From a virus (lineage: Duplodnaviria; Heunggongvirae; Uroviricota; Caudoviricetes), in the IMG/VR virus record IMGVR_UViG_2671180458_000004: a stretch of 21,008 nucleotides of DNA, one strand, 5' to 3'. The translations under genes were made by a program, and so were the position numbers. Each line of letters opens with the position of its first letter. The stretch's first letter is position 1. The notes beneath the pieces are model-generated. The model did no database searches. It had not been told where the DNA came from and saw only the letters and a program-made list of their open reading frames with translations. Below, piece after piece: positions 4,144 through 21,008 of this stretch.

Positions 4144-4181
4144 ATTGCCTCCGCATAAAGGATGAATATAAAATAAACAGG

Positions 4182-4264: not shown

Positions 4265-5596
4265 TTAATCAATATCTCCTTCCAGTACCTCAAGCATTCC
4301 GCCCCGGATATCCGATTTCAGCTTATCCATATTGATAACCCGGTAAGCATTCACAATCACATCCAGTTTATCCGGCTGACGCTTCAGGCTGTACGGCGCA
4401 TTAACGGCAATCTGCACACTGCCATCCTTACTTTCCACGATATACATCAGATTGTTGTGGCGTTTATCCCACAGTACCGCTTTTGGCGCGGCCAGCATTG
4501 CCGGTAATCGCCCGAAATCCTCCGGCGTCAGGGCGATACCGTCATTCTGATGTTTCATGCTGTCCGCATGGAGCACATTTTTACCGCTCATCGCCAGCAG
4601 GCGGGCCGGTGGCGTTCCCGTCCGGCTTTCCACCGCCTGCGCAATGCTTTCGGTCATAAAGCCCAGCGTGCGGATATCGTTACCGCCTCGCCGGGTTTTC
4701 ATGATGTTTTTTGCCCAGATGCGAAATGCCAGCTGCCGCTCCGGGCTGTTGTTCATCTCCTGAACCACCATTTCCCGTAACGCCGGGCTTTTCACTTCGA
4801 TCAGCTTGCGGATCAGCGCCTGGTCTGTGCCGAACGCCGCCGAACCGGGGTTATATGACCAGCCCACATCCGGTGTCATGGTTCTGGTGCCATCTGAATA
4901 TGTGGTCACCGGCATTTCTCTGACTTCTCCGGTCTGCTTATCCACGCCAGCCTCAACATTGCGGGTGGAGAGATGATCCTGACCGGATGAAACAGACAGC
5001 CCCATCGCATCCAGACGGGCCTGAGACAATGGCCGGACACGGCAGCGACAGTTCCAGCCATTGGGCGGGTAGTGTGTATTCCAGAACGGATCGTCATAGC
5101 GGAATACCAGCCCGTTAAGGGCGGAATGTGCCGGGCGGGTGCGGCTGTCCATCACCGCCACATACTGCCAGAACGGATGCGTGTCCGTGTTGTTCATCAT
5201 CTGCGTGTAACGCCCGGCATTGTAAGCCACACGGGTGTTCACGTTGTAAATCAGCGCCAGACGGCGGGGACTGCCCAGCTGCACTTCTTCCGCGTTACCG
5301 GCACTGTCCACCACAATCTGTTTTCCCCACCATCCCAGCTTTTGCAGGCGGGGTGTCAGCGTGCGAATAAATGCTTTCTGTGAAATCCCCTCATCAACAG
5401 CACGCTGCACTTCCGCCTGTAGTGTGGTCAGTACGTCCAGGCGTGCCACTTTTGCCGCCGTGAATGAACGGGCATGAACATCCGCGTCTGTTTCGAACCA
5501 GTTCCAGCTGATATGCGCCCCTTTGGCGCGGAAGTATGCCACCGCCTCTTTTGAGGCAAGTGTGGCGGCATAACCTAAATCAATCCCCTGTGCCAT
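4265..5596 (-). CDS. F: Head morphogenesis protein, Mu gpF (SPP1 gp7) family
   Basis: 443-aa ORF after the portal gene. It contains the family hallmark PFWQYVAVMDSRTRPAHSALNGLVFRYDDPFWNTHYPPNGWNCRCRVRPL. Confidence 0.9.
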   Translation of the reverse strand: MAQGIDLGYAATLASKEAVAYFRAKGAHISWNWFETDADVHARSFTAAKVARLDVLTTLQAEVQRAVDEGISQKAFIRTLTPRLQKLGWWGKQIVVDSAGNAEEVQLGSPRRLALIYNVNTRVAYNAGRYTQMMNNTDTHPFWQYVAVMDSRTRPAHSALNGLVFRYDDPFWNTHYPPNGWNCRCRVRPLSQARLDAMGLSVSSGQDHLSTRNVEAGVDKQTGEVREMPVTTYSDGTRTMTPDVGWSYNPGSAAFGTDQALIRKLIEVKSPALREMVVQEMNNSPERQLAFRIWAKNIMKTRRGGNDIRTLGFMTESIAQAVESRTGTPPARLLAMSGKNVLHADSMKHQNDGIALTPEDFGRLPAMLAAPKAVLWDKRHNNLMYIVESKDGSVQIAVNAPYSLKRQPDKLDVIVNAYRVINMDKLKSDIRGGMLEVLEGDID

Positions 5597-8833: not shown

Positions 8834-9414
8834 CAGGCTTTACCCAACAGAATCCCCTTAATACGGGACTCAAGCTGTTCACTCATCCCGTCCACGCCGC
8901 GCAGCTCGTCGGTGACCGCGTTTGCCATCTCTTCAGCAAATGCGGCCCGGATTTCTTTTTCACGCTTAATGCTGCGCTCGGCGGCACTTTCCGCACGCTG
9001 TGCTGACAGGAGGATGTCTTTGATGAGGCGCATATCCACGTCGCTGTCGCTGTTCAGAGATTCGGTCGCGGCACGCAGGCGGCGGTACATCAGGGCGCGG
9101 GACATTTCCAGAATCAGCGCTGTGGTTTCACCGGTTGGCTTGTCCCCCAGTTCGGCCATCATGGCTTTTGTCTGCTCGCGTAAATCACGCAGGTTACGGG
9201 CAATCAGCTCATTACGGGAGGCTTCCCGGCTGATGGCCGCCGGTGAAAGCTGCTGCTCTTCCGGCAGGCCCGCCTCACGGATCAGACGGTTGATTTCCTC
9301 GCGGATCTGGACCTGCGTCAGACGTTTTTCACGCAGCATTTCCAGCAGCGGCTTACGGATGCTGTCGGGGAGCAAATCCACCTTGCGTACACGACCACGC
9401 GTCGGCTTGTCCAT
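8833..9414 (-). CDS. Terminase small subunit candidate (Mu gp27 family, DUF3486-type)
   Basis: 193-aa ORF directly upstream of TerL. The N-terminus RGRVRKVDLLPDSIRKPLLEMLREKRLTQVQIREEINRL matches the Mu gp27 style from memory. Confidence 0.75.
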   Translation of the reverse strand: MDKPTRGRVRKVDLLPDSIRKPLLEMLREKRLTQVQIREEINRLIREAGLPEEQQLSPAAISREASRNELIARNLRDLREQTKAMMAELGDKPTGETTALILEMSRALMYRRLRAATESLNSDSDVDMRLIKDILLSAQRAESAAERSIKREKEIRAAFAEEMANAVTDELRGVDGMSEQLESRIKGILLGKA

Positions 9415-9416
9415 CG

Positions 9417-9707
9417 TTACCCCCTTGCGCGTGGTTTCTTCACACCCGGAACGCAGGCCCGGCCTTCCGCCACATCCTGCCCCCGGCCGGTCAGCTCTGC
9501 GATGAAATAACCGTTAATCAGAACGCGTTTGCGCACCAGTCCCTGCTCGGCAAGCCAGGCAATGTGGGTGTGAACGGTGTCGCGGGACACGCGGTGGCCG
9601 TAATCATCCAGACAGTCCTGGAGCACGGATTCACCCAGTTCACCGTTGTAATCTGCCAGCGACCGCAGAATGACCAGACGCTGATCTTCAGTAATGAAAT
9701 CACTCAT
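9417..9707 (-). CDS. Small winged-helix DNA-binding protein (Mu gp26 position)
   Basis: 96-aa ORF. ILRSLADYNG...VSRDTVHTHIAWLAEQGLVRKR looks like an ArsR/MarR-type wHTH. Its start overlaps the upstream stop by 4 nt. Confidence 0.6.
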   Translation of the reverse strand: MSDFITEDQRLVILRSLADYNGELGESVLQDCLDDYGHRVSRDTVHTHIAWLAEQGLVRKRVLINGYFIAELTGRGQDVAEGRACVPGVKKPRARG

Positions 9708-10012
9708 TGCGTTTTTTTCCTTACAGCCTGCTCCAGCAGCAGTTCGTTCTGATAGGAGACAGAGCGGAGCGTGGCGTTCGTGGTTTTCAGTTCACCCCGC
9801 AGGGTCACGATTTCCACATTCAGACGGTTGACCTCGGCTTCTGTCGGCAGTGACGACAGGCGGGTTTCCACCTTCTCAACGCGGTCGGAGAGTTTTTCAA
9901 AGGCCTCGCGGGGGACAAACGTTTTGCGCATCAGCGCCATGAATATCCCGCCAGCGGTTGCCGTCGCCGAAAGGATCGGCACAACATAATCTTTAACGAT
10001 GCTGACCCACAT
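9704..10012 (-). CDS. N-terminal TM plus coiled-coil protein (Mu gp25 position; possible lysis accessory protein)
   Basis: 102-aa ORF. It has a hydrophobic N-terminus (VVPILSATATAGGIFMALM) followed by a heptad-like helical region. It lies at the distal end of the lysis cassette. Confidence 0.6.
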   Translation of the reverse strand: MWVSIVKDYVVPILSATATAGGIFMALMRKTFVPREAFEKLSDRVEKVETRLSSLPTEAEVNRLNVEIVTLRGELKTTNATLRSVSYQNELLLEQAVRKKTQ

Positions 10013-10220
10013 GACGGGCCTCCATGATGTTCTGGCAGTTCACACAACGGATGGCATCCGGCACCGCAACAAGACGTGCGGCGGGGATCTCTCCGCCACA
10101 GTCTGCGCAGACACGTCTGCCCGGAGCATCCATTGCCCGGCGCTTACGTGTCAGCCGGTTACAAAGGGCGCGTTCTGATCCCCGCTCCATCACAGCCTGA
10201 GCACGATCTGAATCATCCAT
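9993..10220 (-). CDS. TraR/DksA-family C4 zinc-finger protein
   Basis: CADCGGEIPAARLVAVPDAIRCVNCQ is the CxxC-17-CxxC TraR/DksA motif. I place the start at the ATG at 10220 (MDDSDRAQ...), which has AAGGA upstream. The ORF track's start at 10286 would overlap the o-spanin. Confidence 0.75.
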   Translation of the reverse strand: MDDSDRAQAVMERGSERALCNRLTRKRRAMDAPGRRVCADCGGEIPAARLVAVPDAIRCVNCQNIMEARHVGQHR

Positions 10221-10230
10221 ACCTTTTTCC

Positions 10231-10602
10231 TTACTTCGTCTTTCCTGCCGGAACAGCAGGCGTTCCGGCCATATCAGTAAATTCATGTTGTCGCCGCGCC
10301 TCCAGACGACGAATACTGGCCTTGTCCACGTTGCAGTTCTTGATCACCGCCAGCAGTTGCAGGTTGTAAGTGACCGATGCCCCAAACGTGAACGGCTCCG
10401 GCGCAGGAGGGACCAGGCAGTCAGCCAGCCATTCAGCGGGGATCGGCACCGGCTTCACAGGCACGTATTTCACAGACGGCCCGGCGCACCCGGTCAGCCA
10501 CATCATCAGGAACAGGGACAGAGGCCGCAGGCACTGCTGCCAGCGACCGGCGGACAACGCTCTGCTGCTCCTCGCTGTGCTGAATGTTCTGTTGTTTTTC
10601 AT
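10231..10602 (-). CDS. Outer-membrane lipoprotein spanin (o-spanin) candidate, overlapped architecture
   Basis: A lipobox LTGC lies after the hydrophobic stretch LSLFLMMW, and the mature part is Pro-rich. The ORF starts (ATG 10602) inside the i-spanin gene in another frame and extends about 200 nt past it. The signal peptide from this ATG is unusually long, so the true start may be downstream. Confidence 0.6.
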   Translation of the reverse strand: MKNNRTFSTARSSRALSAGRWQQCLRPLSLFLMMWLTGCAGPSVKYVPVKPVPIPAEWLADCLVPPAPEPFTFGASVTYNLQLLAVIKNCNVDKASIRRLEARRQHEFTDMAGTPAVPAGKTK

Positions 10603-10783
10603 TCGTGGCCGCCTCACTGATTTGTGAAATGAGTTGCAGGGTGTGCTGCTGATTTGCCAGCACCTGACGCGCCTCATCCCGCTCACGCACAAGCACCTGA
10701 TTATTGTCTTCAAGGCGCTGTGTCTTCTGGTGCATTCCCCATATCGCGGCAACCAGTACAGCGATAATCCCCAGCGCCGCCAT
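10433..10783 (-). CDS. Inner-membrane spanin (i-spanin, Rz-like) candidate
   Basis: From ATG 10783: an N-terminal TM (MAALGIIAVLVAAIWG), then a charged coiled-coil (QRLEDNNQVLVRERDEARQVLANQQHTLQL). The gene is immediately downstream of the endolysin. The frame stays open upstream to 10954 (TTG), so the start is uncertain. Confidence 0.6.
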   Translation of the reverse strand: MAALGIIAVLVAAIWGMHQKTQRLEDNNQVLVRERDEARQVLANQQHTLQLISQISEAATNEKQQNIQHSEEQQSVVRRSLAAVPAASVPVPDDVADRVRRAVCEIRACEAGADPR

Positions 10784-10895
10784 GCACGCCCCGGCAATCA
10801 GGGCCGGTAAGGCATTATTCACCGCAGCCACAGGACACCCCGTAACAGCAGTACCGCACACAGCAGCGCTATCATGAGCGGTCGCCAGAAGCGGT

Positions 10896-11396
10896 TCAGA
10901 CTTTCGGCAAGTCGTAGCGACATAACCATTCATCCGCCGAACGGCGGGCCTCAAGGCCGGGGAGTTTCACCCCCTTTGAATAAATCCAGCGGATATACTG
11001 CTTACAGGACGCGGGCATCTGCCCGGCATTGATCAGGCGCAGAAGCGTGGAGTTGCGGAAGTTCGTTTCACCGGCCCAGAAGATCCACGAAGCCAGCGCC
11101 ACCGTCTGACCACGGGTAAGCGGCACCTGAACACGCCGATCAATGGCCGCAAAGGCCCATTTCATGTCCTTTTCCAGCAGTTCCAGGCATTCTTCATCCG
11201 TCAGGGTCATACCCGGTTTCACATCCGGGCCGGTATGGCCGTAACAGATGGTGGGTGTACCGGTGGGATCGATATACGTGGAGTTTTCTTTCCCTTCCCA
11301 GTAACCGGTGTAATGCGTGGCAATCGTGAACGTCCCGGCACCGGCCAGAACAAGGGCAATCAGCTTTTTACGCAGTGGTGCGGGGAGTTTTGGCAT
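10896..11396 (-). CDS. lys: SAR (signal-anchor-release) endolysin, T4-lysozyme/GH24 type (Mu gp22-like)
   Basis: 166-aa ORF. The catalytic E-8-D-5-T pattern is present in YWEGKENSTYIDPTGTPTICYGH. The N-terminal segment KKLIALVLAGAGTFTIATH is Gly/Ala-rich and weakly hydrophobic, typical of SAR domains. Confidence 0.85.
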   Translation of the reverse strand: MPKLPAPLRKKLIALVLAGAGTFTIATHYTGYWEGKENSTYIDPTGTPTICYGHTGPDVKPGMTLTDEECLELLEKDMKWAFAAIDRRVQVPLTRGQTVALASWIFWAGETNFRNSTLLRLINAGQMPASCKQYIRWIYSKGVKLPGLEARRSADEWLCRYDLPKV

Positions 11397-11397
11397 T

Positions 11398-11435
11398 GTT
11401 ACGCTGTCTCATGATGTTCTCTGAGTCAGCGTAAC
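11398..11435 (-). promoter_or_regulatory. Perfect 9-bp inverted repeat immediately upstream of the endolysin start codon
   Basis: gttacgctg (11398-11406) and cagcgtaac (11427-11435) are perfect complements separated by 20 nt. On the minus-strand mRNA the 3' arm ends 1 nt before the lys AUG. This is either an RNA hairpin around the ribosome binding region or a dyad protein-binding site. Confidence 0.45.
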
Positions 11436-11467
11436 GGTGAAGGAAAGGCGGCAGGCTTTGCGGAATA

Positions 11468-11893
11468 TCAGAAAAGTGGCGGTTGCGTTCTTGCCAGATG
11501 CAGACGGCGCTGTTCGCGTATGACGGTATAAATCTGGGTTTCTGACATCCGGTAATGGCGGCGAAGGGATTCAATTTTCTCGCCCCGGTCCCAGCGCGAA
11601 AATATCTCATTGTTTCGCAGCTCGGCAAAGAGAGATTCCCCGACCGGCAGGTAATAACCCCGTCCGCCCATATAGGCTGCCTGAGCCGCAGCCACCTTGC
11701 GTGCCAGTTTACCGGCCAGTACCGGCTCAATCCCCTGACGCTGAAGTTCTGCGCCAGTGACTTCAACCAGTTCTGACAGGGTCCGCGGCCAGTTCTTTTT
11801 GAGAACATCATCAGGGATGTCATCAAGGCGGTCGATAAGGGCGTGCAGTTGCTCACTGTCACCACCAAACATGCTCATCTGAGTTTCTGCCAT
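11468..11893 (-). CDS. Mor/C-family transcriptional activator (middle/late gene activator)
   Basis: 141-aa ORF. The C-terminal HTH region LRNNEIFSRWDRGEKIESLRRHYRMSETQIYTVIREQR matches the Mu Mor/C family pattern. It lies directly upstream of the lysis and late genes. Confidence 0.85.
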   Translation of the reverse strand: MAETQMSMFGGDSEQLHALIDRLDDIPDDVLKKNWPRTLSELVEVTGAELQRQGIEPVLAGKLARKVAAAQAAYMGGRGYYLPVGESLFAELRNNEIFSRWDRGEKIESLRRHYRMSETQIYTVIREQRRLHLARTQPPLF

Positions 11894-11926
11894 ATCAGCC
11901 TCCGGTTCTCGCGTTCCCGGTAAGTT

Positions 11927-11958
11927 TAAAATAAAAATCCCGCGTTGTGGCGGGATTT
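11927..11958 (-). terminator. Rho-independent terminator after gemA (end of the early operon)
   Basis: The minus strand reads AAATCCCGC-CACAAC-GCGGGATTT followed by TTATTTTAAA. That is a 9-bp perfect stem, a 6-nt loop and a U-rich tail, placed 5 nt after the gemA stop. Confidence 0.8.
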
Positions 11959-11962
11959 GGGG

Positions 11963-12472
11963 TTAACGGGGAAGTGATTTTTCATACTGCCTGCAAACGG
12001 CGTCATACCCCATCAGCGTGCGTTCGGGCATTCCCATCGCGGCCAGCATTTTGCGGCGGTGCCATCGCTTGAGACGCTCCAGCACATCTGAGGCCAGGGC
12101 GGGGTGTTGCTCCAGCCACTGCCAGTTTGCCACACCTTCGCCGCCGTTTTGCGCGGCCGTCTGCGATTTCACCCAGCGGTTAAGGGCGGTTTCCGCACCA
12201 TCAGAGATAAAGCCCTGCCGGTGCATCACCTTCCAGATGGCGCGAATTTTAGCGGTCACCGTACCCGGTTTTAAGGCCCGGTTAACCGGGTTCTGACGCA
12301 CTTTAAAACCGCGTTTTTTGAAAACATCCAGCACGCGGGACAACTCATCCGGTGACATATCCCGGCAGCTGGTTTTGCCGGTGGCTGCCAGCAGCACGAA
12401 TGTATAAGTCTCATCATCCAGGGCAAGCTCGCGCTTTGCCACATGAATGGCGGATATCAGTTTTCCTCTCAT
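11963..12472 (-). CDS. gemA: GemA-like regulatory protein (Mu gp16 family, DUF1018-type)
   Basis: 169-aa ORF. The N-terminus LISAIHVAKRELALDDETYTFVLLAATGKTSCRDMSPDELSRVLDVFKKRGF matches the Mu GemA/gp16 family from memory. It is adjacent to the Mor-family gene as in Mu. Confidence 0.8.
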   Translation of the reverse strand: MRGKLISAIHVAKRELALDDETYTFVLLAATGKTSCRDMSPDELSRVLDVFKKRGFKVRQNPVNRALKPGTVTAKIRAIWKVMHRQGFISDGAETALNRWVKSQTAAQNGGEGVANWQWLEQHPALASDVLERLKRWHRRKMLAAMGMPERTLMGYDAVCRQYEKSLPR

Positions 12473-12765
12473 ACCGTATTTACCTTTTTACGGACATGGA
12501 AAGCCTTTTCTGCCTCATCCCACCGGGCATGGTGTGTTGGCGGAATAATCATTATGTGCCAGCCATCTCTGGTTGTTATCCGGCAGAAAAATTCACCGCT
12601 ATATAACACAATGGCCTGCTGAATGAGCGCATCAGCCGCCCGTTCAACCGGATATCTTTTATCAAAAAAGCAGATGATTTTTCGACATAACCACCGGGTA
12701 ATAACAAATGCACCGAAAAAGGATGTGATATATAAGCACCAGAACAACAGAGAACTATTGTCCAT
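12469..12765 (-). CDS. Hypothetical protein with N-terminal transmembrane segment
   Basis: 98-aa ORF with an ATGA-type 4-nt overlap with gemA. The N-terminus is hydrophobic (LLFWCLYITSFFGAFVITRWL). It lies in the AT-rich block. No recognisable family. Confidence 0.6.
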   Translation of the reverse strand: MDNSSLLFWCLYITSFFGAFVITRWLCRKIICFFDKRYPVERAADALIQQAIVLYSGEFFCRITTRDGWHIMIIPPTHHARWDEAEKAFHVRKKVNTV

Positions 12766-12952
12766 TATCTTTCTCCTTATTCACTCTTCTTCGGCATTCG
12801 GCACAGTCATCAGGGCTTTCAAATGTATCCGGCTCGCGATTATGAGCCAGATATAACCACCGTCCACATATACTGATATTTTCGCCTGTTTTAAAAAAAT
12901 GATGCTTCCTGGCCATTAGTGGCCGCGCCCATCCAGCGGGTAGACTATTCAT
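12755..12952 (-). CDS. Small hypothetical protein, possible zinc-ribbon
   Basis: 65-aa ORF overlapping both neighbours by 8-11 nt. ICGRW...H...CAEC could form a Cys3His or zinc-ribbon site. The call is weak. Confidence 0.5.
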   Translation of the reverse strand: MNSLPAGWARPLMARKHHFFKTGENISICGRWLYLAHNREPDTFESPDDCAECRRRVNKEKDNGQ

Positions 12953-13280
12953 TTGCTTTATCCTCCATGCTGGACAGAATCATATGTATTAATGTCGGGC
13001 GTGGAGATATACGCATTTCATTAAGCGTCTGAAGGGCAGCAACAGCTGCCTGTTTATCGGTGCCTTTGGCTATCTCTGCAAGAGAATGCACAATCCATAA
13101 CGGACTTAACGCCACGGCTGAATCCAGAATCATGTCATCCATAATAATTTCTGGCATATCCCGCTTGTCACATTCTTTATCTATAAAAGAAACGATTTTT
13201 TCTGCATCTTCCGGTTTCATGCCTCCGGCGATGAGAATTTTACGATATTCATAAGGCGATCTTAATTCAATACTCATCAT
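12945..13280 (-). CDS. Hypothetical acidic protein
   Basis: 111-aa ORF in the AT-rich block. By my count it has 19 Asp/Glu versus 13 Lys/Arg. No recognisable family. Confidence 0.6.
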   Translation of the reverse strand: MMSIELRSPYEYRKILIAGGMKPEDAEKIVSFIDKECDKRDMPEIIMDDMILDSAVALSPLWIVHSLAEIAKGTDKQAAVAALQTLNEMRISPRPTLIHMILSSMEDKANE

Positions 13281-13292
13281 TCACCTGCCTGT

Positions 13293-13661
13293 TTAATCAG
13301 TTTCCAGTGCTTTGCTACGGGCAACAGCCTCACACTCAAAAAATACCGACTCCGGCACACGCTCCTTTAATTCACGAACAAGAAAATCATTAACGAGCTC
13401 ATGACGTCTTATATTTCTTTCCTTTTCCTCCTGGCGCAATACAGCAAGGCGGTATTCAACAGTCCGGCGTTGTTTCTGAAAGACAGCCAGTGCTTTTCTG
13501 GCAGAGTTACGCCATGTATCATCGCCACAGGGTTCGTATTCAAGCTGAAATTTAATCTCTTCAATGGTTTCTTTTATTTTTGCCAGCAAGCTAAGACAGT
13601 CGCTGATTGTCTTCAGTTTTTCATTATCAATATAACTTCTCACGCATTCACCTCCCGTCAT
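13293..13661 (-). CDS. Hypothetical coiled-coil protein
   Basis: The ORF is open from 13685, but the ATG at 13661 forms an ATGA overlap with the upstream stop (13660-13658), so I prefer it. The protein is helical and charged (KIKETIEEIKFQLEY, LAVLRQEEKERNIRRHEL). Confidence 0.6.
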   Translation of the reverse strand: MTGGECVRSYIDNEKLKTISDCLSLLAKIKETIEEIKFQLEYEPCGDDTWRNSARKALAVFQKQRRTVEYRLAVLRQEEKERNIRRHELVNDFLVRELKERVPESVFFECEAVARSKALETD

Positions 13662-13969
13662 TCCGGTAAAGCTGAAATATGACACCAGTGCGTCACCTGT
13701 CCGTCCTCATCTTCAAGGCAGGCTCCGGTTTCTTCATCAACAAAAAAGCCTTCATACCCCATATGGCCGATGCGCAGTTCCTGCCTGTGACCATACTGAA
13801 CAATCAGCACGACAGCCTCCATATCAGGCGGGAAAGCATCATTCAGTGAATGCCAGGGATAACCGCGCAAATCCCCGAAATAAACACCGGTCAGCGTTCC
13901 GCCACAGACCGGCATTCCGGCGGCACACACAAGAGGTTCATCTGATTCAACAAATAAGGTGGTTATCAT
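13658..13969 (-). CDS. Very acidic hypothetical protein, DUF551-like C-terminus
   Basis: 103-aa ORF with 17 Asp/Glu versus 3 Arg and no Lys. YPWHSLNDAFPPD...VVLIV...VTHWCHISALPE resembles the DUF551 pattern (W..v.D.lP ... VTHWmPLPe) from memory. Confidence 0.6.
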   Translation of the reverse strand: MITTLFVESDEPLVCAAGMPVCGGTLTGVYFGDLRGYPWHSLNDAFPPDMEAVVLIVQYGHRQELRIGHMGYEGFFVDEETGACLEDEDGQVTHWCHISALPE

Positions 13970-14193
13970 GATGCCATTTGCTCCTGTATTTTCTGGCGTA
14001 AGTTTTCAATTTCTGCCGCCATATAAAAACCAATTTTGCTCCAGACATCAGCATCATCACCATGTTCTTCCAGCTCCATTACCGCCATTAAACACGCATC
14101 CTGCCAGTCACTGCTGTTATCAGTTACCGCCACTGAAAATGATGTACTGTCATGTCTGTTAATTATGACGACTGGCTTTTCAATTTTTCTCAT
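13966..14193 (-). CDS. Small acidic hypothetical protein
   Basis: 75-aa ORF with ATGA-type overlaps at both ends. It has 14 Asp/Glu versus 7 Lys/Arg. Confidence 0.6.
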   Translation of the reverse strand: MRKIEKPVVIINRHDSTSFSVAVTDNSSDWQDACLMAVMELEEHGDDADVWSKIGFYMAAEIENLRQKIQEQMAS

Positions 14194-14375
14194 TTATGCC
14201 TCCCGGAAATACGAATGTATATACCGATGAGAAAATCCATAATAAACAGGAAGAGCGACATCCTGATAAAGAACCAAATGTCAGGCATCATGGACAGGTT
14301 TCCTGTAATCGCAAATATAAAACCAATCCCCAACACCGGAACGATAATTGCGAAAAATATAAGTCGTTTAATCAT
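14190..14375 (-). CDS. Small two-TM membrane peptide
   Basis: 61-aa ORF with two hydrophobic stretches (LIFFAIIVPVLGIGFIFAI and IWFFIRMSLFLFIMDFLIGIYI). It is translationally coupled (4-nt overlaps) to both neighbours. Confidence 0.6.
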   Translation of the reverse strand: MIKRLIFFAIIVPVLGIGFIFAITGNLSMMPDIWFFIRMSLFLFIMDFLIGIYIRISGRHK

Positions 14376-14923
14376 GGCATTAACTCCCGTAATACAACAT
14401 CCTCGGCAGTCCGGCGATGGTGATAAATAAAATTCACCGTACTCTCGGATAATTCAAATTTCTCGCCTATTTCCCGGAAGGTAAGACGTCGTGGTGATTC
14501 AGCATCCCGTAATTCACGAATAAGATGAACATCATCGTCAGGTATACGGGTGAAGGGCAGCAATTCTCCGTATTTTTTCATGCTTACGCCAATATATCGC
14601 GCCCGATTGTGGACAGAATCCCGGTCTCGCCCCAGATATTCTCCTATTTGCTTACCGGTCATCGTTCTGGCATTTTTTCGGATAAATTTATCTTCATCAT
14701 GTTTAAATCTTGGACGTTTGCATTTGAGCAACTCCGGGTAAGTACCGCGTAATAAAACAATCCGGTTATGTACACCCCAGAAACTTCTTTTTACCCTGAC
14801 AGCAATATCCTTAACCGGGGTGGATGGATAAAGCGCAATCAGCAGTGCATCTTCTTCAGGTGTCCACGCACGGACATGAGCGGGTGCACGGCCTTTTCGC
14901 CCCATGGGTTGTAAAATCATCAT
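14372..14923 (-). CDS. Putative DNA-binding protein with three Myb/SANT-like HTH repeats
   Basis: 183-aa ORF with three similar units. These are WTPEEDALLIALY...IAVRVKRSFWGVHNRIVLL, FKHDEDKFIRKNARTMTGKQIGEYLGRDRDSVHNRARYIG and IPDDDVHLIRELRDAESPRRLTFREIGEKFELSESTVNFIYHHR. Confidence 0.65.
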   Translation of the reverse strand: MMILQPMGRKGRAPAHVRAWTPEEDALLIALYPSTPVKDIAVRVKRSFWGVHNRIVLLRGTYPELLKCKRPRFKHDEDKFIRKNARTMTGKQIGEYLGRDRDSVHNRARYIGVSMKKYGELLPFTRIPDDDVHLIRELRDAESPRRLTFREIGEKFELSESTVNFIYHHRRTAEDVVLRELMP

Positions 14924-14926
14924 ACA

Positions 14927-15442
14927 TCACCCCCTGACTCGCTTTTCAGCAGCATAAAACTCATCAGACAGAATTTCGGTCATTTTCCGTTTTGCGGAAT
15001 CATCTTCGCACTGAAGGTAAATAACATCGTCAACGCAGAACCACTTCACGGGACCATGCAATATTGCTGAAAAGTCAATGCCCAGCCAGAACAACAGGGC
15101 ATCGGTTCTGGCATACGTGACGGGCGAATATTCACGCCACAGACTGTTAAGTTCGTCAGAGGCAACGCGCAGGGCTTTGGGAATACGTGATGTGCGCGGT
15201 GTGCAGCTCCAGCCATTCGACGCAGTCGGTTTTCGCCATAAGTCGCGATGAAAAGGATATTTGTCATCCATAAAGCGCAGCCCTTTAAAACAAAAGCCAC
15301 TGATACCGGATACAAATACCGACCGGCACGCAACATTCAGCACGGCCTCAAGGCGTTTTGCCTCATCCTTAACTTTCTGGCAGTCCTGCTGATATTTTTT
15401 CCACGCGGCCAGCGCGGAAGGGTTTGATGTTTTAAAGAACAT
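14927..15442 (-). CDS. Hypothetical protein (possible distant paralog of 15979-16521)
   Basis: 171-aa ORF. It shares KYQQ near the N-terminus, a WRK motif about 50 residues later and a D.L.(F/V)WL motif with the 180-aa ORF, in the same order. The similarity was judged by eye only. Confidence 0.6.
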   Translation of the reverse strand: MFFKTSNPSALAAWKKYQQDCQKVKDEAKRLEAVLNVACRSVFVSGISGFCFKGLRFMDDKYPFHRDLWRKPTASNGWSCTPRTSRIPKALRVASDELNSLWREYSPVTYARTDALLFWLGIDFSAILHGPVKWFCVDDVIYLQCEDDSAKRKMTEILSDEFYAAEKRVRG

Positions 15443-15975
15443 TACGCCACCTCCGCAGATATCCCGGCAGGCGCGGCCGTCCGGTCAACAATCAGGTAAC
15501 GCAGAACACGCGCGGTGATATTCCAGCCGCTTAAACCGCAGATGATGACACCCAGGCGTATGTCGATATACGCCATCACAAACTGGGGCACGCCTTCTTT
15601 CATGGCCTGCTCATCAACTTCAGCCACCACATAAACGGTTTCGCAGGTCAGTACGCCCTGAGCAAATTCCCACGCCATCGACGGAATATCATGCCCCTCA
15701 ATCCACGGCAGGGACTTTCTGAAGCTGCACCACTGAACATCATCAGCCGCACATTCCTGGCTGCATTTGCGACGAACCGGCTGCACCGGGCGGGGACGCG
15801 GAATATCATAAAAACCGTTACATTCCGTCAGCACCCCGGCATCAACCGCATCACGCAGAAAATAAACCATCGAGGATGGCGGCATATTCATTTTTTCAGC
15901 CAGAACACCGCAGGTCAGACGTCCGTAAATACGCAGCCAGTTTTTAACCCCTTCAAGCACTTTTGCATCAATCAT
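15442..15975 (-). CDS. Hypothetical protein: N-terminal winged-helix-like domain plus DUF551-like C-terminal region
   Basis: 177-aa ORF. The N-terminus LRIYGRLTCGVLAEKMNMPPSSMVYFLRDAVDAGVLTE looks like a wHTH. The C-terminal QWCSFRKSLPWIEG...VYVVAEV... resembles the DUF551 opening motif. This is a weak by-eye call. Confidence 0.6.
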   Translation of the reverse strand: MIDAKVLEGVKNWLRIYGRLTCGVLAEKMNMPPSSMVYFLRDAVDAGVLTECNGFYDIPRPRPVQPVRRKCSQECAADDVQWCSFRKSLPWIEGHDIPSMAWEFAQGVLTCETVYVVAEVDEQAMKEGVPQFVMAYIDIRLGVIICGLSGWNITARVLRYLIVDRTAAPAGISAEVA

Positions 15976-15978
15976 GAA

Positions 15979-16521
15979 TTATTCCTCCGTCAGCGCCACA
16001 TATTCAGAATGTTTAATTTCCTGGCATTCTTCAGGAATACACCCGTTTATTTCCCTGCCATAAGCGCCTACTTTAAACACCACGCACAGGGCATCACGGG
16101 AGAGTGACGGGGTCCACCAGGAGTCCGTGTTAAACATGGAGGGGATTCTCATTACCCCCAGCTTTTCACAGAGCCAGACAAGGAAATCAGGACGCTTTCT
16201 TAACTCGCGTTCAGCGGCTTCAACCATTGCGGCAATCGCCGGACCTTCAGGGCATGACTCATCAGGTCTGGCAATAAAGCACGGTCCGCCCCCGATAAAA
16301 GCCACATCATCGCGCTTACGCCAGCCCGCAGGCAGAGAACCAGAAAAATAAAACTCACTGATTACGTCCATGGCGAACGGCTTTAAGCGCAATCCGGCAG
16401 CGCCTGTATTTTTCAGTAATGCCCGAAGAATACTGTTGCGTAGCGGTAAAACAGTCTGTTGATATTTGGTGAAATATTTATTTGTCTGTACACGGTCTAA
16501 TTTGAAATAAAAATATGCCAT
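15979..16521 (-). CDS. Hypothetical protein (first gene after gam)
   Basis: 180-aa ORF with AAGGAACAGG upstream of the ATG. A 97-nt AT-rich spacer precedes it. No recognisable family. Confidence 0.6.
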   Translation of the reverse strand: MAYFYFKLDRVQTNKYFTKYQQTVLPLRNSILRALLKNTGAAGLRLKPFAMDVISEFYFSGSLPAGWRKRDDVAFIGGGPCFIARPDESCPEGPAIAAMVEAAERELRKRPDFLVWLCEKLGVMRIPSMFNTDSWWTPSLSRDALCVVFKVGAYGREINGCIPEECQEIKHSEYVALTEE

Positions 16522-16618
16522 ATTTCCTGTTCCTTATTTTCAGTTTACAGGCGCAGGCAGTCCCCTGACGCGAGCGCCATAATTAAAACGAAGTGATATT
16601 TAAAGATTTAATGCGGTG

Positions 16619-17149
16619 TTATTTATTCAGTCCGGCGTCCTGTTCAAAAGGCTCGACATGAAAACTTTCAGCACCTTTATTCACCTTAATACCAGCAACC
16701 CCTTTCACCGCATCCGGCTCCGCCAGGACAGCTTGCTTATTCACTTCCTCTTTCGTGCGGATGAAGCGCTCAAGCCCCATACGACGCAGCATTTCAATCA
16801 CACCTTCCACATCACGACTGACGCTGCATGATGGATTTCCCAGCCGCCATGACACCGTTCCGGTGGTCAGATTGGCAGTTTTGGTTTCGCCGCCGTTCGT
16901 CAGCTCATTGCGGTTGGTTTTACACCAGTCATGAATCCCCTTAAAAAGCACTTTGATTTCTTTTTTAAGGTTTTCAATCTGCGGCGTATAACGGGCGGTG
17001 ATTTCTGCCACTTCATCATTCATTGCCGTTTCCAGGCGCAGCGCCTCTCGCTGAATATCGCCCAGGGTGCGGATATCGCGGCTGACCTCTTCACGGGTCT
17101 GCGGTGCCGCCTCTGCTGCGGCCTTTAATTTTGTAACGCGTTTTGCCAT
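16619..17149 (-). CDS. gam: Gam, host-nuclease (RecBCD) inhibitor / DNA-end binding protein, Mu Gam family
   Basis: 176-aa ORF that aligns by eye along its length with Mu Gam. Shared segments include LGD(I/L)QREA.RLET.MND..AEIT, NR.ELTNGG..KTANL.TG.VSWR, RFIRTK.E.NK.A.L.EP.AV.GVAGI.V and PFEQ.AG. Confidence 0.9.
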   Translation of the reverse strand: MAKRVTKLKAAAEAAPQTREEVSRDIRTLGDIQREALRLETAMNDEVAEITARYTPQIENLKKEIKVLFKGIHDWCKTNRNELTNGGETKTANLTTGTVSWRLGNPSCSVSRDVEGVIEMLRRMGLERFIRTKEEVNKQAVLAEPDAVKGVAGIKVNKGAESFHVEPFEQDAGLNK

Positions 17150-17160
17150 TTTGTTTTTCC

Positions 17161-17454
17161 TTATTGCAATGTATCTGGTCCGTTCTGAACAGAACGGCGT
17201 TCAACGGAGCTGCTTACCCCCATGGCCTGCATGGAACCCTGTAGTTCATCTGTCAGAAACTGAATGATTGTGGGGCTGTGATATTTAAGAATTTGTGCAT
17301 AAACATCACAGGGTCCTGCCGGTCTGTTCTCTGTATCACGTTCGATTTTTACCGTGGCAGTAACCCCCTCCGTGATTTCCTTACTATCATTACCGGCTGG
17401 CTTTACTTCATGCATTACGTGGTCAAATTCAAAAATAACGCGTACTTTGCTCAT
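17161..17454 (-). CDS. Hypothetical early protein, tandem paralog A
   Basis: I prefer the ATG at 17454 (MSKVRVIFEFDHVMHEV...), 4 nt after the upstream stop. The ORF track's 17481 start overlaps the neighbour. The N-terminus parallels that of the adjacent 90-aa ORF. Confidence 0.6.
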   Translation of the reverse strand: MSKVRVIFEFDHVMHEVKPAGNDSKEITEGVTATVKIERDTENRPAGPCDVYAQILKYHSPTIIQFLTDELQGSMQAMGVSSSVERRSVQNGPDTLQ

Positions 17455-17458
17455 GGAA

Positions 17459-17731
17459 TTACCCCTGTTGATTAAATTCATTACCGTTAATAACCCCGGA
17501 ACTCATGTCCATATCTTTCATGAGCGCACTGGCTTTCATTGCCACAAGTTCAGCAAAGTCTCTGCTTTCCGCGAGCATAACCACCCCAAAAATCATGGCG
17601 GGTCCATCACCTTTCTGCTTTATCCCGGTTGAACGTATGTCCAGACTTACCCCCATGCGCACTGTTCCATCAGCGTTTTTATGGATAACGTGCTCCTTGT
17701 ATTCGAAAATAATGCGTACGACTTTACTCAT
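17459..17731 (-). CDS. Hypothetical early protein, tandem paralog B
   Basis: 90-aa ORF beginning MSKVVRIIFEYKEHVIHK.... It has a 4-nt overlap with the upstream gene. Confidence 0.6.
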   Translation of the reverse strand: MSKVVRIIFEYKEHVIHKNADGTVRMGVSLDIRSTGIKQKGDGPAMIFGVVMLAESRDFAELVAMKASALMKDMDMSSGVINGNEFNQQG

Positions 17732-18009
17732 CCTCTGGTCCTCGTTCTGTTTGGATAACTGACCCGGCGTCTGACCTCACGGCAGAACCGAATCATGGCA
17801 TTAAAGGCTTCTTCCTCCGTCACCGCTTCCGGTATCCCCGGAACCAGTAACTGCTCCTGTTCATCACGTCCATGACGCGCCATAACCTCAATCACATGCC
17901 GTACTGTGGCAGGCTTTCCGGCAACTATCGGCAATGCACCTTCCGGCAGGACGTAACCCAGTTCAATGAGACCGCTCGACCACGCCCACGCAATTAGATT
18001 TCGTTTCAC
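17728..18009 (-). CDS. Hypothetical early protein
   Basis: 93-aa ORF packed into the operon. IAWAWSSGLIELGYVLPEGALPIVAG is reminiscent of small conserved ORFs in Mu-like early regions, but I cannot name a family. Confidence 0.55.
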   Translation of the reverse strand: MKRNLIAWAWSSGLIELGYVLPEGALPIVAGKPATVRHVIEVMARHGRDEQEQLLVPGIPEAVTEEEAFNAMIRFCREVRRRVSYPNRTRTRG

Positions 18010-18010
18010 C

Positions 18011-18277
18011 TCACTCCTCCCAGTAAACCGTGCAGCCGCTGATGCGGGTAGCCTTCACACGGCGGCGCAGGCCGTTGGTCTGTATGGTGATTTCAATTTC
18101 ACCGGTTCCCTTAACTTCGCTTACCGGCGGCGTGGTTTTCAGGGCATAACGTTGTGGGTAGCGTTTGCTGCGTTCCAGTACCGCACCGGCAAGTTCAGTC
18201 AGACGGCGTGCACTGTTCAGGGAGTCGAATAAATTCATTTTTTTACCGCAGGATTGCATATTCATATAACACCTCAT
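18011..18277 (-). CDS. Hypothetical early protein
   Basis: 88-aa ORF. The start is ambiguous: GAGGTG inside the first codons would serve the ATGs at 18265 or 18259 better than the one at 18277. Confidence 0.5.
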   Translation of the reverse strand: MRCYMNMQSCGKKMNLFDSLNSARRLTELAGAVLERSKRYPQRYALKTTPPVSEVKGTGEIEITIQTNGLRRRVKATRISGCTVYWEE

Positions 18278-18505
18278 TTAGCTGACTTGTTTCGCACCAA
18301 CAGAACGGCATATTCCGCTGTAAACTTCTGTCGCACCTTCGCGATCAAGTCCGGCAGATATCACCATTCGTGTGCGGTCATTAAATTCAAAAAGTAAATC
18401 GCCACATTCTTTATTTTCGGCCAGTGAAATCACCTTCACGTTATCGAAATTAACCAGGTAAAAGCGTCCGTAAATATCAGGAATATTAAATACCGCCATA
18501 ATCAC
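18278..18505 (-). CDS. Hypothetical early protein in the position of Mu kil (immediately after B)
   Basis: 75-aa ORF with a 4-nt overlap with the B stop. The kil analogy is positional only; no sequence similarity is claimed. Confidence 0.55.
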   Translation of the reverse strand: MIMAVFNIPDIYGRFYLVNFDNVKVISLAENKECGDLLFEFNDRTRMVISAGLDREGATEVYSGICRSVGAKQVS

Positions 18506-19434
18506 ACCTGTGAGAGTAATTCAGGGTTGGTATAAACCTCTTTAAAGGCCGCATTAATATGTTTTTCTGTCAGCGCCGCGCCTTCACCGCTGGCGGTGAG
18601 CCACGCCTGGTTAAGCGTATGTGTCAGAACGCGTAACGCTCCCGGCTTTTCAGCGATAGCCTGCATGACGGCCAGCTCGGCCTCACCACTGATCCCCCAC
18701 GCCCTGGCAATGGCCAGCACATCCGCCTTTTTGGCCTTGCGAAGTTGTTTTGTACGGGCAAGACGGCTGAACAGGCGCGATAAATCATCAAAGGCGCGGC
18801 GTCCACCTTTAAACAATCCGCGCGGGTTACCAATAAGCACCATCCCGATCCCCGTGGCGTCCTGAATTGCCCGGAGTTGCTCCAGACCGTCAATACCAAG
18901 ATGATCCGCCTCATCCACAATCACCAGTCCACGCGTTCCCATCAGGCGACGGCGGATGGCGCGGGATAATGCCCCTTTGTTCGCGCGGGTGTAATCAATC
19001 CCCAGCGCATCGGCCAGCTCCAGCAGACACTCCGTGACGCTGGAGTGCGCGGGTGACAGGGTGATCATCCAGGTGTTTGGTTGCTCCTGGCAGTAATTAC
19101 GGGCAGTGGCCGTTTTACCCACACCCGGTACGCCCACAATAACGTTAATACAGCCCATCAGACGAACCGCCTGAAACAGTGTGCGCAGCTCCTGGACTGT
19201 CTGCGTTTCCACAAACTGCGGCGGTTCCGGCAGTGCGCTTTGTTTATTCCAGTTCTCATACCAGGAACGCAGGGAAGCAGCCACAGCAGCGTTATCGCCT
19301 TTATATTTTCCCTTACGGAAAGCCGATAATGTGCCGTCGGAAATTCCCGCCTCTCTGGCGATGGCATACTGCGTCAGTACGCCGCCATCAATAAGTTCAT
19401 CAATGGTCTTGATTACATCGTTAATATCAGTCAT
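18502..19434 (-). CDS. B: MuB-like DNA transposition ATPase (AAA+), N-terminal HTH
   Basis: 310-aa ORF, the same size as Mu B. It has Walker A GVPGVGKT and Walker B LVIVDEADHL, plus an N-terminal HTH (LTQYAIAREAGISDGTLSAFRKG). It lies directly downstream of the transposase, with GAGAGG upstream of the ATG. Confidence 0.9.
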   Translation of the reverse strand: MTDINDVIKTIDELIDGGVLTQYAIAREAGISDGTLSAFRKGKYKGDNAAVAASLRSWYENWNKQSALPEPPQFVETQTVQELRTLFQAVRLMGCINVIVGVPGVGKTATARNYCQEQPNTWMITLSPAHSSVTECLLELADALGIDYTRANKGALSRAIRRRLMGTRGLVIVDEADHLGIDGLEQLRAIQDATGIGMVLIGNPRGLFKGGRRAFDDLSRLFSRLARTKQLRKAKKADVLAIARAWGISGEAELAVMQAIAEKPGALRVLTHTLNQAWLTASGEGAALTEKHINAAFKEVYTNPELLSQV

Positions 19435-19469
19435 ATTATTAACCTCTCATTTGATACCTTGTTTAATCA

Positions 19470-19497
19470 AATAACCTGAGTCGCCGCTCGGGTTATT
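19470..19497 (-). terminator. Hairpin flanked by A- and U-tracts between A and B (possible attenuator)
   Basis: The minus strand reads AAAAAAAT-AATAACCCGAG-CGGCGA-CTCAGGTTATT-TGATT. That is an 11-bp stem with one C/A mismatch and a U-rich 3' side, inside the 71-nt A-B spacer. Confidence 0.35.
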
Positions 19498-19505
19498 TTT
19501 TTATT

Positions 19506-21008
19506 TCAGGCCAGCGGGTCATTTTCTTTTAATTTCGCTTCCAGCAACTGCAATCCCCGCTGGAAATTACGCTCGTATTCTTCATCAGGCTCATCATCAA
19601 CGGCAGGTTGCTGAACGGCCACCGTATTACCTACCGGGCGATAGATGTTTTCCAGCCAGGGCTCCTGCGGCTTGTGCTCCAGCACGTTGACAACCTCATC
19701 CTCGGCATCACGGATTTTTTCCTCTGCGCGTTTACGCATGCCTTTAAGGCGTTGCTGCTGTTTGTAGTATTCCGCGCTAACCGGGAAGGCTTCGCGTTTA
19801 TTACCGTCCCATACCGCCTCGCAAATCACGCTGCCATCCAGGCGACGTACGGTAATTCGTTCGGCATCATGAATGTCATAGCTGATAAGCACCTTGCGGC
19901 CATGCTCATCACGCAGCTCGGGCGCGTAGTAAATATTATTCAGCCAGCGTATTTCACAGCGTCTTACAGGGCGTTCCACCATCGGCCGGAACATGTCCCG
20001 CAATTCCACATCGGACAGCCATTCAATTTCCGTGTCCTCTTCCGCCAGGCATTTTTTTCTGAACTCCGCCGGGCTGTAATGTTTACCGTTCGGCTTCATC
20101 GGTAATTCATCGTGCGGTCGGTTGTTGTACCACTCAACACCATCACGAATGGCATCAATCAGTTCAGACCAGGACGGTAAATCACGCATCGCTGACTGTT
20201 GCCGGGCGTTCAGCCGTTTGCCCTGTTGCAGGGCGGTAAATGCCGAGCGTAAATCGCGGTTGGTTTTGCGTAACGTCTCGCGATCTGCACCTTTCCCGAA
20301 ATAGGTGCGGTATTTACGGGCTATGCGCATCGGTAATGTGCGGTTAAGCCGTTCGATAATGCCTCGTCCCTGCGGATTACCGGCAATCCCGGTCGGGTGA
20401 TTAATCCCCAGTCGCGGCAGTATCCCCACAACCTCCTTATCCAGGATGTCGGCGGTTTCCCCGGAGCCGTTATCCGAGTAATACAGAAACGGTTTGCCGT
20501 GATGGCGAATGCCGTGCTGTATGGCACCGGCTACGGCGAAAACATTTTCAGCCAGGTCAAGGCTCCAGCCCACCACAAAGCGCGTGCCACCGTCGATAAC
20601 AAAGGTCACTTCCGGTGCAAATGGCCGACCGTGAACCGGGTGTGCGCATTTCAGCTTCATGCCGTGACCGTCACCAATCCAGACATAATTCACCGGCATT
20701 TTTGACCAGTCGCGGCGCGTGAATCCCTCAAGCTGGCGGTATTCACTGCCGGTCACCCGGCCTTTTTGTTTCACCACTTCCGGCAGTTTCTTCATTGCGC
20801 GGCGAATGGTGTCATAAGACGGCATGATATCGAGCATATAAGGCTCATCAGCGTGCCGGTGCTGCCATTCAGCGACAAAATCCTCGTAAGCCTCGGTCAT
20901 TGGTCGGCCGTTTGACTGGCGATACTGCGCCAGAAATTCGGGCAGCCAGTTAATATCTTCGGCTTTTATTTCCTGGCGCTTACCCGGTGCCAGTAAAAGC
21001 AGGCGTTC
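19506..21008 (-). CDS. A: DDE transposase (Mu A-type / rve-fold core), 5'-truncated by the window edge
   Basis: The frame is open from the annotated ATG (20900) to the window end (...ERLLLLAPGKRQEIKAEDINWLPEFLAQYRQSNGRP-MTEAY...), so the gene starts beyond 21008. The DDE triad is visible: VWIGDGHG, 66 aa, YYSDNGSGE, 40 aa, GIIERLNRT. It sits upstream of the MuB-like gene. Confidence 0.9.
   Translation of the reverse strand, partial: ERLLLLAPGKRQEIKAEDINWLPEFLAQYRQSNGRPMTEAYEDFVAEWQHRHADEPYMLDIMPSYDTIRRAMKKLPEVVKQKGRVTGSEYRQLEGFTRRDWSKMPVNYVWIGDGHGMKLKCAHPVHGRPFAPEVTFVIDGGTRFVVGWSLDLAENVFAVAGAIQHGIRHHGKPFLYYSDNGSGETADILDKEVVGILPRLGINHPTGIAGNPQGRGIIERLNRTLPMRIARKYRTYFGKGADRETLRKTNRDLRSAFTALQQGKRLNARQQSAMRDLPSWSELIDAIRDGVEWYNNRPHDELPMKPNGKHYSPAEFRKKCLAEEDTEIEWLSDVELRDMFRPMVERPVRRCEIRWLNNIYYAPELRDEHGRKVLISYDIHDAERITVRRLDGSVICEAVWDGNKREAFPVSAEYYKQQQRLKGMRKRAEEKIRDAEDEVVNVLEHKPQEPWLENIYRPVGNTVAVQQPAVDDEPDEEYERNFQRGLQLLEAKLKENDPLA

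Follow-up and report, generated by a model that had tools for sequence, protein, structure and literature searches.

Conserved core and optional genes between gam and gemA in a Mu-like Escherichia coli prophage

Genes of the gam-gemA interval

The DNA analysed here (21,008 nt; IMG/VR virus record IMGVR_UViG_2671180458_000004; this whole stretch is called the window below) is a Mu-like transposable prophage of the type called Sp18 in Escherichia coli O157 Sakai, from the descriptions in PMC2669165 and PMC4406740. Our subject is a block of eleven open reading frames (ORFs), named O1 to O11, which lie on the (-) strand between gam and gemA (12469-16521; Table 1). A, B and kil precede the block, the Mor/C activator and the lysis genes follow it, and the gene order is collinear with that of phage Mu (NC_000929) for gam, gp11 (68% identity), gp12 (53%) and gemA (43%). 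A first-pass annotation, made from the sequence alone, had reported eleven tightly packed same-strand ORFs at this place and had assigned them to the semi-essential early region of a transposable phage. Both statements are confirmed, the second by Pfam matches to Phage-MuB_C, Phage_Mu_Gam, GemA and Mor and by a PHROG match to Kil.

The same annotation had regarded all eleven ORFs as unassignable, with none matching a Mu core function, and this part has to be corrected. O2 is the orthologue of Mu gp11 and O3 that of gp12, O4 shares 31% identity with Mu gp9 (gp9/E8), and O1 and O9 are related to genes of SfMu, so that 5 of the 11 ORFs have counterparts in Muvirus. In BLASTP searches against the Mu proteins, the identities of O2 (68%, full length) and O3 (53%) are similar to or above those of B (49%) and Gam (55%), and the values for GemA and transposase A are 43% and 24%, respectively.

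O2 covers the complete Gp11_C profile of Pfam (PF25754; positions 1-78 of 78; 136.3 bits against a cutoff of 27), keeps 67-70% identity across Mu, D108, SfMu and Yersinia Mu-like phages, and was found in every related locus extending that far. It also has a weak, sub-threshold HTH_20 match at residues 17-49, and gp11 may be a DNA-binding protein with an N-terminal winged helix-turn-helix (HTH). O3 matches phrog_2314 (E 1e-82) and is present in all Sp18-type relatives; its counterpart is named “Mu-Gp12 family protein” in one RefSeq record. O4 matches phrog_323 (“transcriptional regulator, D5-like”, E 2e-58) and has sub-threshold Pfam matches to HTH (residues 131-167) and Myb (residues 19-32) profiles, and its RefSeq counterparts are named AsnC family, SANT/Myb-like or DNA-binding protein. 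Besides, O4 gave a PADLOC homing-endonuclease match at 0.0085 and a weak PHROG HNH-endonuclease match (E 0.004). It is constant in the lineage, where two allele classes occur (~70% and 89-99% identical). O1-O4, gp11 and gp12 were also searched against the PDB by sequence and by profile, with no match below E 0.1.

Table 1. Features of the window around the gam-gemA interval, in the direction of the (-)-strand genes (aa, amino acids; pI, isoelectric point)
Feature	Position	Strand	Description
Window		(-)	Mu-like transposable prophage (Sp18-type), from Pfam/PHROG matches
B	18502-19434	(-)	Pfam Phage-MuB_C and AAA_22; 49% identity to Mu B
Kil homologue	18011-18277	(-)	PHROG Kil match
gam	16619-17149	(-)	Mu Gam/Ku-like DNA-end-binding protein, 176 aa; Pfam Phage_Mu_Gam, E 2.6e-39
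Post-gam element	16522-16618	(-)	Conserved non-coding leader of the block, 97 nt, between gam and O1
O1	15979-16521	(-)	180 aa; slot directly after gam; optional; relative of SfMu DUF5420 protein
O2	15442-15975	(-)	177 aa; orthologue of Mu gp11; conserved core
O3	14927-15442	(-)	171 aa; orthologue of Mu gp12; conserved core
O4	14372-14923	(-)	183 aa; pI 10; predicted DNA-binding, Myb/SANT-like and HTH motifs
O5	14190-14375	(-)	61 aa; pI 10.9; two hydrophobic transmembrane-like segments; optional
O6	13966-14193	(-)	75 aa; pI 4.5; rarest part of the block
O7	13658-13969	(-)	103 aa; pI 4.3; predicted beta-rich (low-confidence model); optional
O8	13293-13685	(-)	130 aa from GTG, or 116 aa from ATG 13643 (RefSeq); optional
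O9	12945-13280	(-)	111 aa; acidic; SfMu gp14 homologue in the same slot; optional
O10	12755-12952	(-)	65 aa; small and basic; family very widespread in phages; optional
O11	12469-12765	(-)	98 aa; one N-terminal hydrophobic segment, predicted membrane-anchored; optional
gemA	11963-12472	(-)	169 aa; final gene of the operon; Pfam GemA, E 1e-29
Terminator-like hairpin	11935-11958	(-)	Intrinsic-terminator-like, 9-bp stem then TTTTATTTT; top result of terminator scan
Mor-family activator	11468-11893	(-)	Pfam Mor
Lysozyme gene	10896-11396	(-)	After the Mor gene

To describe the layout, we summarized the junctions between neighbouring ORFs. ATGA overlaps are found at O4/O5, O5/O6, O6/O7 and O11/gemA, the O2/O3 junction reads TAATG, and of the remaining junctions three are overlaps (8, 11 and 28 nt) and three are gaps (3, 3 and 12 nt). 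The hairpin directly 3' of gemA is kept in every related locus and is the sole strong terminator-like structure; the terminator scan gave no strong one inside the block. The promoter scan, which is consensus-based and crude so that weak or activator-dependent internal promoters could escape it, gave 6 promoter-like sites in the region against a shuffle expectation of 10.9 +/- 3.9, that is, no excess. The tight junctions, the promoter-like sites below expectation and the single terminator together indicate one operon segment ending after gemA. The first-pass picture of a single coupled unit is supported in that the packing permits translational coupling, which the layout suggests.

The ORF list was purely mechanical, and several of the small ORFs might not be genes, but might have arisen by chance in AT-rich DNA or be remnants in decay, as the weak codon-position signal of O5 and the resemblance of O6 to the N-terminal part of longer proteins would allow. 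We consider this very improbable, as PHROG families are matched by 10 of the 11 ORFs (E from 4e-4 to 3e-105), free-standing versions of O6 exist, and an unbroken head-to-tail packing would not be expected of non-genes. Among relatives, substitutions are in excess at the third codon position in O2-O4 and O7-O10, indicating that these are real genes under purifying selection. RefSeq annotates all eleven genes in hundreds of genomes, mostly as hypothetical proteins. The PHROG annotations likewise read “unknown function”, except for the regulator families of O4 and its one weak HNH-endonuclease match.

Base composition and mosaicism among relatives

The three 60-base G+C counts of the first-pass annotation were exact on recount (17/60 for 13141-13200, 22/60 for 14221-14280 and 43/60 for 7561-7620). 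The whole block (12469-16521) has a G+C content of 0.466, against 0.569 in the late region (1-11396), so it is indeed low in G+C overall. However, the actual trough is O4-O11 (12469-14923; 0.442), whereas O1-O3 (14927-16521; 0.503) are not below the B-to-gam stretch (0.510), and the drop is sharp at the gemA edge alone. All 20 of the 500-bp windows within 12469-14923 fall between 0.410 and 0.474, below the minimum of the late-region reference (109 windows of 500 bp; lowest 0.504, mean 0.570, standard deviation 0.024). Low values are also found elsewhere: the small ORFs upstream of gam have a G+C content of 0.42-0.45, phage Mu itself has a milder dip (gp13-gp15 0.455-0.475 vs gemA 0.553), and the gam-gemA interval has 0.46-0.48 in every architecture among relatives, whatever its gene content. 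The low G+C reflects the lasting composition of a pool of small accessory genes, not the scar of one recent insertion. E. coli has a typical G+C content of ~0.51. The late region (lysis and morphogenesis, ~0.57) lies above the host and the early accessory genes lie below it, so that backbone and accessory genes bracket the host composition.

For the gene content, the proteins of the window were compared with 42 Gam-anchored IMG/VR loci, two E. coli loci and Mu. It turned out that A, B and Gam are 94-100% identical among the related loci (for Gam, across all of them), and that gp11, gp12 and O4 are contained in all related loci compared. O1 is present, swapped for a 26%-identical allele, or absent, and O5-O11 are gained or lost singly or as small sets, at gene boundaries. 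The length of the gam-gemA interval varies between 2880 and 4150 bp in at least 8 architectures, and that of the window is the longest. For instance, one alternative cassette in place of O8-O11 consists of Mu gp13 (92% identity) and gp14 (~50%), and the O7-O11 segment is complete in 114 of 232 E. coli carriers. The Mu-type lineage is likewise mosaic in a wider set of 74 contigs, where gp11 is near-universal, gp12 is frequent and the rest is optional. A Gam-anchored scan of genome contigs gave only two distant, uninformative loci. The proposal of a variable cassette between gam and gemA is therefore borne out for O1 and the distal genes, but not for gp11, gp12 and O4, which are constant.

These observations bear directly on the view, taken in the first-pass annotation, that the whole block is one compositionally foreign cargo insert unrelated to Mu functions. 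The G+C contrast to the late genes, the sharp edge at gemA and the many products without known function would agree with it. It is nevertheless highly improbable: O2 and O3 are collinear orthologues of Mu genes and more conserved than B or Gam, homologues in Muvirus exist for O1, O4 and O9 as well, the G+C content of O1-O3 is not low, and the content varies piecewise at an equal G+C in all architectures, with a dip in Mu's own slot too. What is found is a patchwork of separately exchanged genes and cassettes round a Mu core. In the terms of Cazares 2014 (PMC4378225), a “region of genomic plasticity” has variable content between core genes among closely related genomes, short packed ORFs and often a G+C valley, and all of these are present here. 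The block is such a region in E. coli, located in the early operon of a transposable phage and made up of genes already in RefSeq.

The distribution of the element was searched with 5.8 kb around the block as query, and matches at 80-99% identity were found in 232 of 5,426 complete E. coli genomes, including many O157, O103, O121 and O111 strains. At least 80% of the query is covered in 209 of the 232 carriers, for the most part with 95-99% identity. A copy with 97.9% identity (LC727881.1, 64227-69999) is annotated as a Mu-like phage within a Stx2c-converting prophage, indicating that the element has transposed into another prophage. Sp18 is also mentioned in a 2026 paper on a small RNA, where only its loss from a mutant is concerned.

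Several further variable places were noticed in the loci compared. Before gemA, L022, L026 and L027 (~520 bp) and L007 (~300 bp) contain stretches without a match to the query proteins used. The B-to-gam interval (17161-18505, (-) strand) is mosaic too: the ORFs 18278-18505, 17728-18009, 17459-17731 and 17161-17481 have alternative alleles (~60-80% identical) or partial matches in near-identical relatives, and ORF 17728-18009 matches phrog_1518, “host nuclease inhibitor”. The gemA-mor junction is a further insertion hotspot. In L038 (~8831-9550), it contains a ~650-bp insert with a copy of the terminator hairpin on either side, and a putative opposite-strand ORF, judged by eye, may lie in the insert. 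In L034 an insertion-sequence-like element of ~1.45 kb is inserted into the hairpin. Within 10896-20900 (~10 kb, examined gene by gene), there is just one Mor/C-family gene (11468-11893), with 39% identity to Mu C vs 27% to Mu Mor. It is located downstream of the strong terminator after gemA, and the activator may be expressed by read-through of this terminator.

Optional genes and the element after gam

The slot directly after gam is occupied by O1, which shares 39% identity over the full length with an SfMu protein annotated as DUF5420, also located directly after gam, and 36% with P0014, named DUF5420. O1 itself has no Pfam or NCBIfam match at E<=0.1, and its predicted fold has no informative neighbour in a fold search. 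Its two alleles (window 15979-16521 vs L007 7702-8292) have an overall identity of 26%. Both retain the C-terminal tail IKHSE..A.TEE in identical form and an N-terminal Y.YFK motif, and the split is unusually deep, since the neighbouring genes are >90% identical in those prophages. O1 and gp12 have a similar length and a common KYQQ motif, but were rejected as paralogues with an hhalign probability of 1.2%.

O5 has hydrophobicity peaks of 2.92 and 2.02 (Kyte-Doolittle, 19 residues) and a weak match to phrog_19804. DNA matching O5 exists in 108 of the 5,426 E. coli genomes (80-99% identity), and the gene occurs in relatives without O6, O7 and O8. Its codon-position signal is weak, with more nonsynonymous than synonymous changes. 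The O5-O6 pair is whole in only 3 of the 5,426 genomes, all of which are bovine isolates from Okinawa.

O6 has no PHROG match, no Pfam match even at E<=10 and no similarity to lambda Ea22. It is still not an orphan: exhaustive HMMER searches gave 53 representative relatives at E<=1e-3, most of which are 99-320 aa long and match at residues 1-70. Ten of them were scanned against Pfam; one contains the Ead_Ea22 coiled coil (PF13935) and another DUF551 (PF04448). The copy in phage Cyrano is annotated “Eae-like protein”, and free-standing versions of 71-78 aa exist elsewhere (P0028, P0044 and P0054). Judged by sequence, O6 corresponds to the N-terminal module (~70 aa) of mosaic accessory proteins of the Eae/Ead/Ea22 type in other temperate coliphages, present here as a free-standing copy. 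An assignment as an Ead/Ea22-like protein was rejected, as O6 is without the Ead_Ea22 coiled-coil domain.

O7 belongs to phrog_6925 (E 1e-51). Its 19 homologues form a family confined to E. coli and Salmonella, and none of them has a Pfam domain. The variable sites of O7 are distributed over the three codon positions as 5/1/13. The AlphaFold2 model is unreliable (pLDDT 50.5) and too poor for a fold search. An identification with DUF551 (PF04448) was discarded, with no Pfam match at E<=10, a BLASTP E of 2.4 against the DUF551 region of P0049, and no homologue carrying the domain. A reading of O6 and O7 as one split Ea22-type protein was rejected as well, with only a short C-terminal motif alike.

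O8 matches phrog_6158 (E 2e-57) and has variable sites of 7/3/22 by codon position. Its relatives with 40-42% identity are found in the unrelated Escherichia phages Fraca, SaltyDalty and Fostie and in Aeromonas phage AsXd-1. The mechanical start (GTG 13685) makes O8 overlap O7 by 28 nt, and the RefSeq counterpart starts at ATG 13643. As the PHROG match starts at residue 15, the shorter form of 116 aa is favoured.

The three genes next to gemA are optional too. O9 (phrog_1988, E 2e-43) shares 35% identity with SfMu gp14 and with a Yersinia phage gene, and occurs in many Mu-type and Sp18-type architectures. O10 (phrog_2358, E 5e-34; variable sites 3/2/11 by codon position) has tblastn matches in 197 phage records, including 167 Pseudomonas phages (many with genomes of ~66 kb) and diverse Escherichia phages. 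O11 (phrog_17269, E 2e-33) has a Kyte-Doolittle peak of 1.82 at residues 4-24 and two allele classes, 91-100% and ~52% identical. Among all the ORFs of the block, O6, O8 and O10 are shared with non-Mu phages.

At its upstream end, the block starts with a conserved non-coding stretch. The gap after gam is 73% identical to the 98-nt gam-gp11 gap of Mu, and 81% in a 42-nt core, with 56-71% in the flanking genes; the element is conserved better than most flanking coding DNA. Its core of ~75 nt can be written TTTTAATTATGGCGC...CGTCAGGGGA...GCGCCTG and includes a GC-rich imperfect predicted hairpin. It can be aligned across Mu, D108, SfMu, a Yersinia phage and the Sp18-type variants, and it was found in 74 IMG/VR contigs (L052-L116), always right after the gam stop, as well as in L003 (6326-6423). 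The conservation stops at ...GCGCCTGAA, which is followed by at least 6 unrelated downstream continuations in different phages. From this conservation pattern, we take the stretch to be a conserved cis element at the upstream junction of the variable array. The predicted hairpin has 0 compensatory pairs, and Rfam gave no match for the whole window at the gathering threshold or for the element at E<=1. The promoter scan reported no site in the element, no convincing sigma-70 promoter was seen by eye on either strand, and nothing on the element was found in the searchable literature.

Interpretation and comparison with known systems

Overall, the block is probably the distal semi-essential early region of an Sp18-type Mu-like E. 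coli prophage, in which a conserved core is combined with an optional layer that is exchanged gene by gene. The array would be one polycistronic set of coupled genes, extending from the element after gam to the terminator after gemA, and by analogy with Mu it would be transcribed within the first minutes of infection or induction, from the early promoter, which lies upstream of the window. Its first layer would be the core inherited with the Mu backbone, namely gp11 and gp12, plus O4 in the Sp18-type lineage. The second layer would consist of the optional O1, O5, O6, O7, O8, O9 and O10-O11, moving as single genes or small cassettes, some of which are common to unrelated phages. The core genes would most likely assist the DNA transactions of Mu or take part in early regulation; the weak HTH match of gp11 and the HTH of O4 suggest that these two act on DNA or as regulators. 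The optional genes would most likely be of conditional advantage in lytic growth, for example in taking over the host or in competing with defences or with other phages.

Some points weigh against this interpretation. Co-transcription and translational coupling are read from the layout, with the early promoter beyond the window, and the crude consensus scan could miss weak or activator-dependent internal promoters. A conditional advantage in lytic growth is a prior expectation and not a result, as 10 of the 11 ORFs have no assigned function. Moreover, O5 has more nonsynonymous than synonymous changes and O6 has no variation in the loci examined, so the coding status of these two rests on their homologues.

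What the optional genes do can be narrowed down to some extent. Since no internal promoter is apparent, their action is expected during lytic growth and not in the repressed prophage. Superinfection exclusion or a lysogen-fitness effect of the small membrane proteins O5 and O11, provided in a moron-like manner by the resident prophage, would accord with their transmembrane-like segments (two in O5 and one in O11) and has a precedent in the small exclusion genes documented in a B3-family temperate phage of P. aeruginosa (PMC9936078). Exclusion by a repressed prophage needs an internal promoter, however, which makes it the less likely role. Morons have their own promoter and terminator and are expressed from the prophage; here the genes lie inside the early lytic operon and overlap their neighbours, no flanking promoter and terminator of their own or strong internal terminator is found, promoter-like sites are below chance, and from Mu biology the genes should be silent in the repressed lysogen. 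We therefore consider exclusion an unlikely explanation.

In another reading, at least one of the optional genes (O1 alleles, O5, O6, O8-O11) is an early lytic counter-defence or inter-phage competition factor, and the mosaicism and allelic divergence reflect an arms race. This would account for the presence/absence polymorphism and for alleles with identities of 26% (O1), 52% (O11) and 70% (O4) in otherwise near-identical prophages. The genes lie in the early operon between Gam and GemA, whose homologues in JBD30 license Gabija targeting in Pseudomonas (preprint PMC12407980), and one low-GC plasticity region in Mu-like phages of Pseudomonas contains anti-CRISPR genes (PMC4378225). Besides, the O10 family spans lytic and temperate phages. 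This support is wholly circumstantial, though. PADLOC, Pfam, NCBIfam and PHROG scans of O1-O11 assigned no known defence or counter-defence family, the fold of O1 has no informative neighbour, neither of the two structure predictions pointed to a function, and literature searches for Mu gp11/gp12, DUF5420 or the RefSeq accessions of these proteins found nothing. Such a function is thus possible, but on the doubtful side. A broader version is speculative and rather unlikely as it stands: the shuffled genes (candidates: the two O1 alleles, O5-O6 and O8-O11) might form an undescribed counter-defence or phage-competition toolkit of the first minutes of Mu-type lytic growth, and the element after gam might be an unrecognised cis signal, either an RNA or a protein-binding site, that governs expression of the array and/or serves as a homology anchor for cassette exchange.

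Whichever function the optional genes have, the result mainly corrects annotation: the stretch is the Mu semi-essential early region, not exotic cargo. Among complete E. coli genomes, ~4% contain this prophage family, and many of these strains produce Shiga toxin. To our knowledge, Mu gp11 and gp12 are still without a function ~40 years after the mapping of the Mu early region. The conserved core is now set apart from the optional genes, and the natural presence/absence variants of the latter offer ready-made isogenic comparisons for host-takeover or counter-defence screens in Mu-like phages. The element after gam is a concrete and cheap target for mutational work.

Compared with phage Mu (gam-gp11-gp12-gp13-gp14-gp15-gemA-mor, NC_000929), the block agrees in position, strand logic and anchors, and it has orthologous gp11 (68%) and gp12 (53%), the same conserved non-coding gap of ~98 nt after gam, and similarly small packed ORFs with a G+C dip. 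The interval is 4.15 kb with 11 genes in the window, whereas it is ~1.9 kb with 5 genes in Mu. O4-O11 replace Mu gp13-gp15, and an additional gene, O1, follows gam, a feature shared with SfMu. The gp9-like HTH gene is located downstream of gam in the window but upstream in Mu. Besides, the window has its terminator after gemA and only one Mor/C-family gene, while the early operon of Mu and D108 includes mor and has its terminator behind that gene. SfMu and Yersinia Mu-like phages (Muvirus) also contain a DUF5420-type gene between gam and gp11 (37-39% identity to O1) and a homologue of O9 (35%) in their gp12-gemA slot, but O4-O8, O10 and O11 are absent from them, and their gp13 and gp15 are still of the Mu type.

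More distant systems show the same kind of organisation. The plasticity regions of Pseudomonas Mu-like phages hold variable accessory ORFs between core genes, mostly in the early (left) arm, and their multi-ORF regions consist of short, packed and dispensable ORFs, some at low-GC valleys, which were read as horizontally exchanged (PMC4378225). The window belongs to another phage lineage and host, so the likeness lies in organisation, with no sequence relationship shown, and one Pseudomonas region of genomic plasticity has experimentally shown anti-CRISPR genes, to which nothing comparable is known here. The lambdoid ninR and exo-xis (ea) regions differ in that the element of the window is transposable and not lambdoid, and O6 is without the Ead_Ea22 coiled coil or any C-terminal domain of the ea proteins. 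They likewise contain short, overlapping and dispensable early genes with gene-level mosaicism, and the sequence of O6 corresponds to the N-terminal module of their Eae/Ead/Ea22-type proteins.

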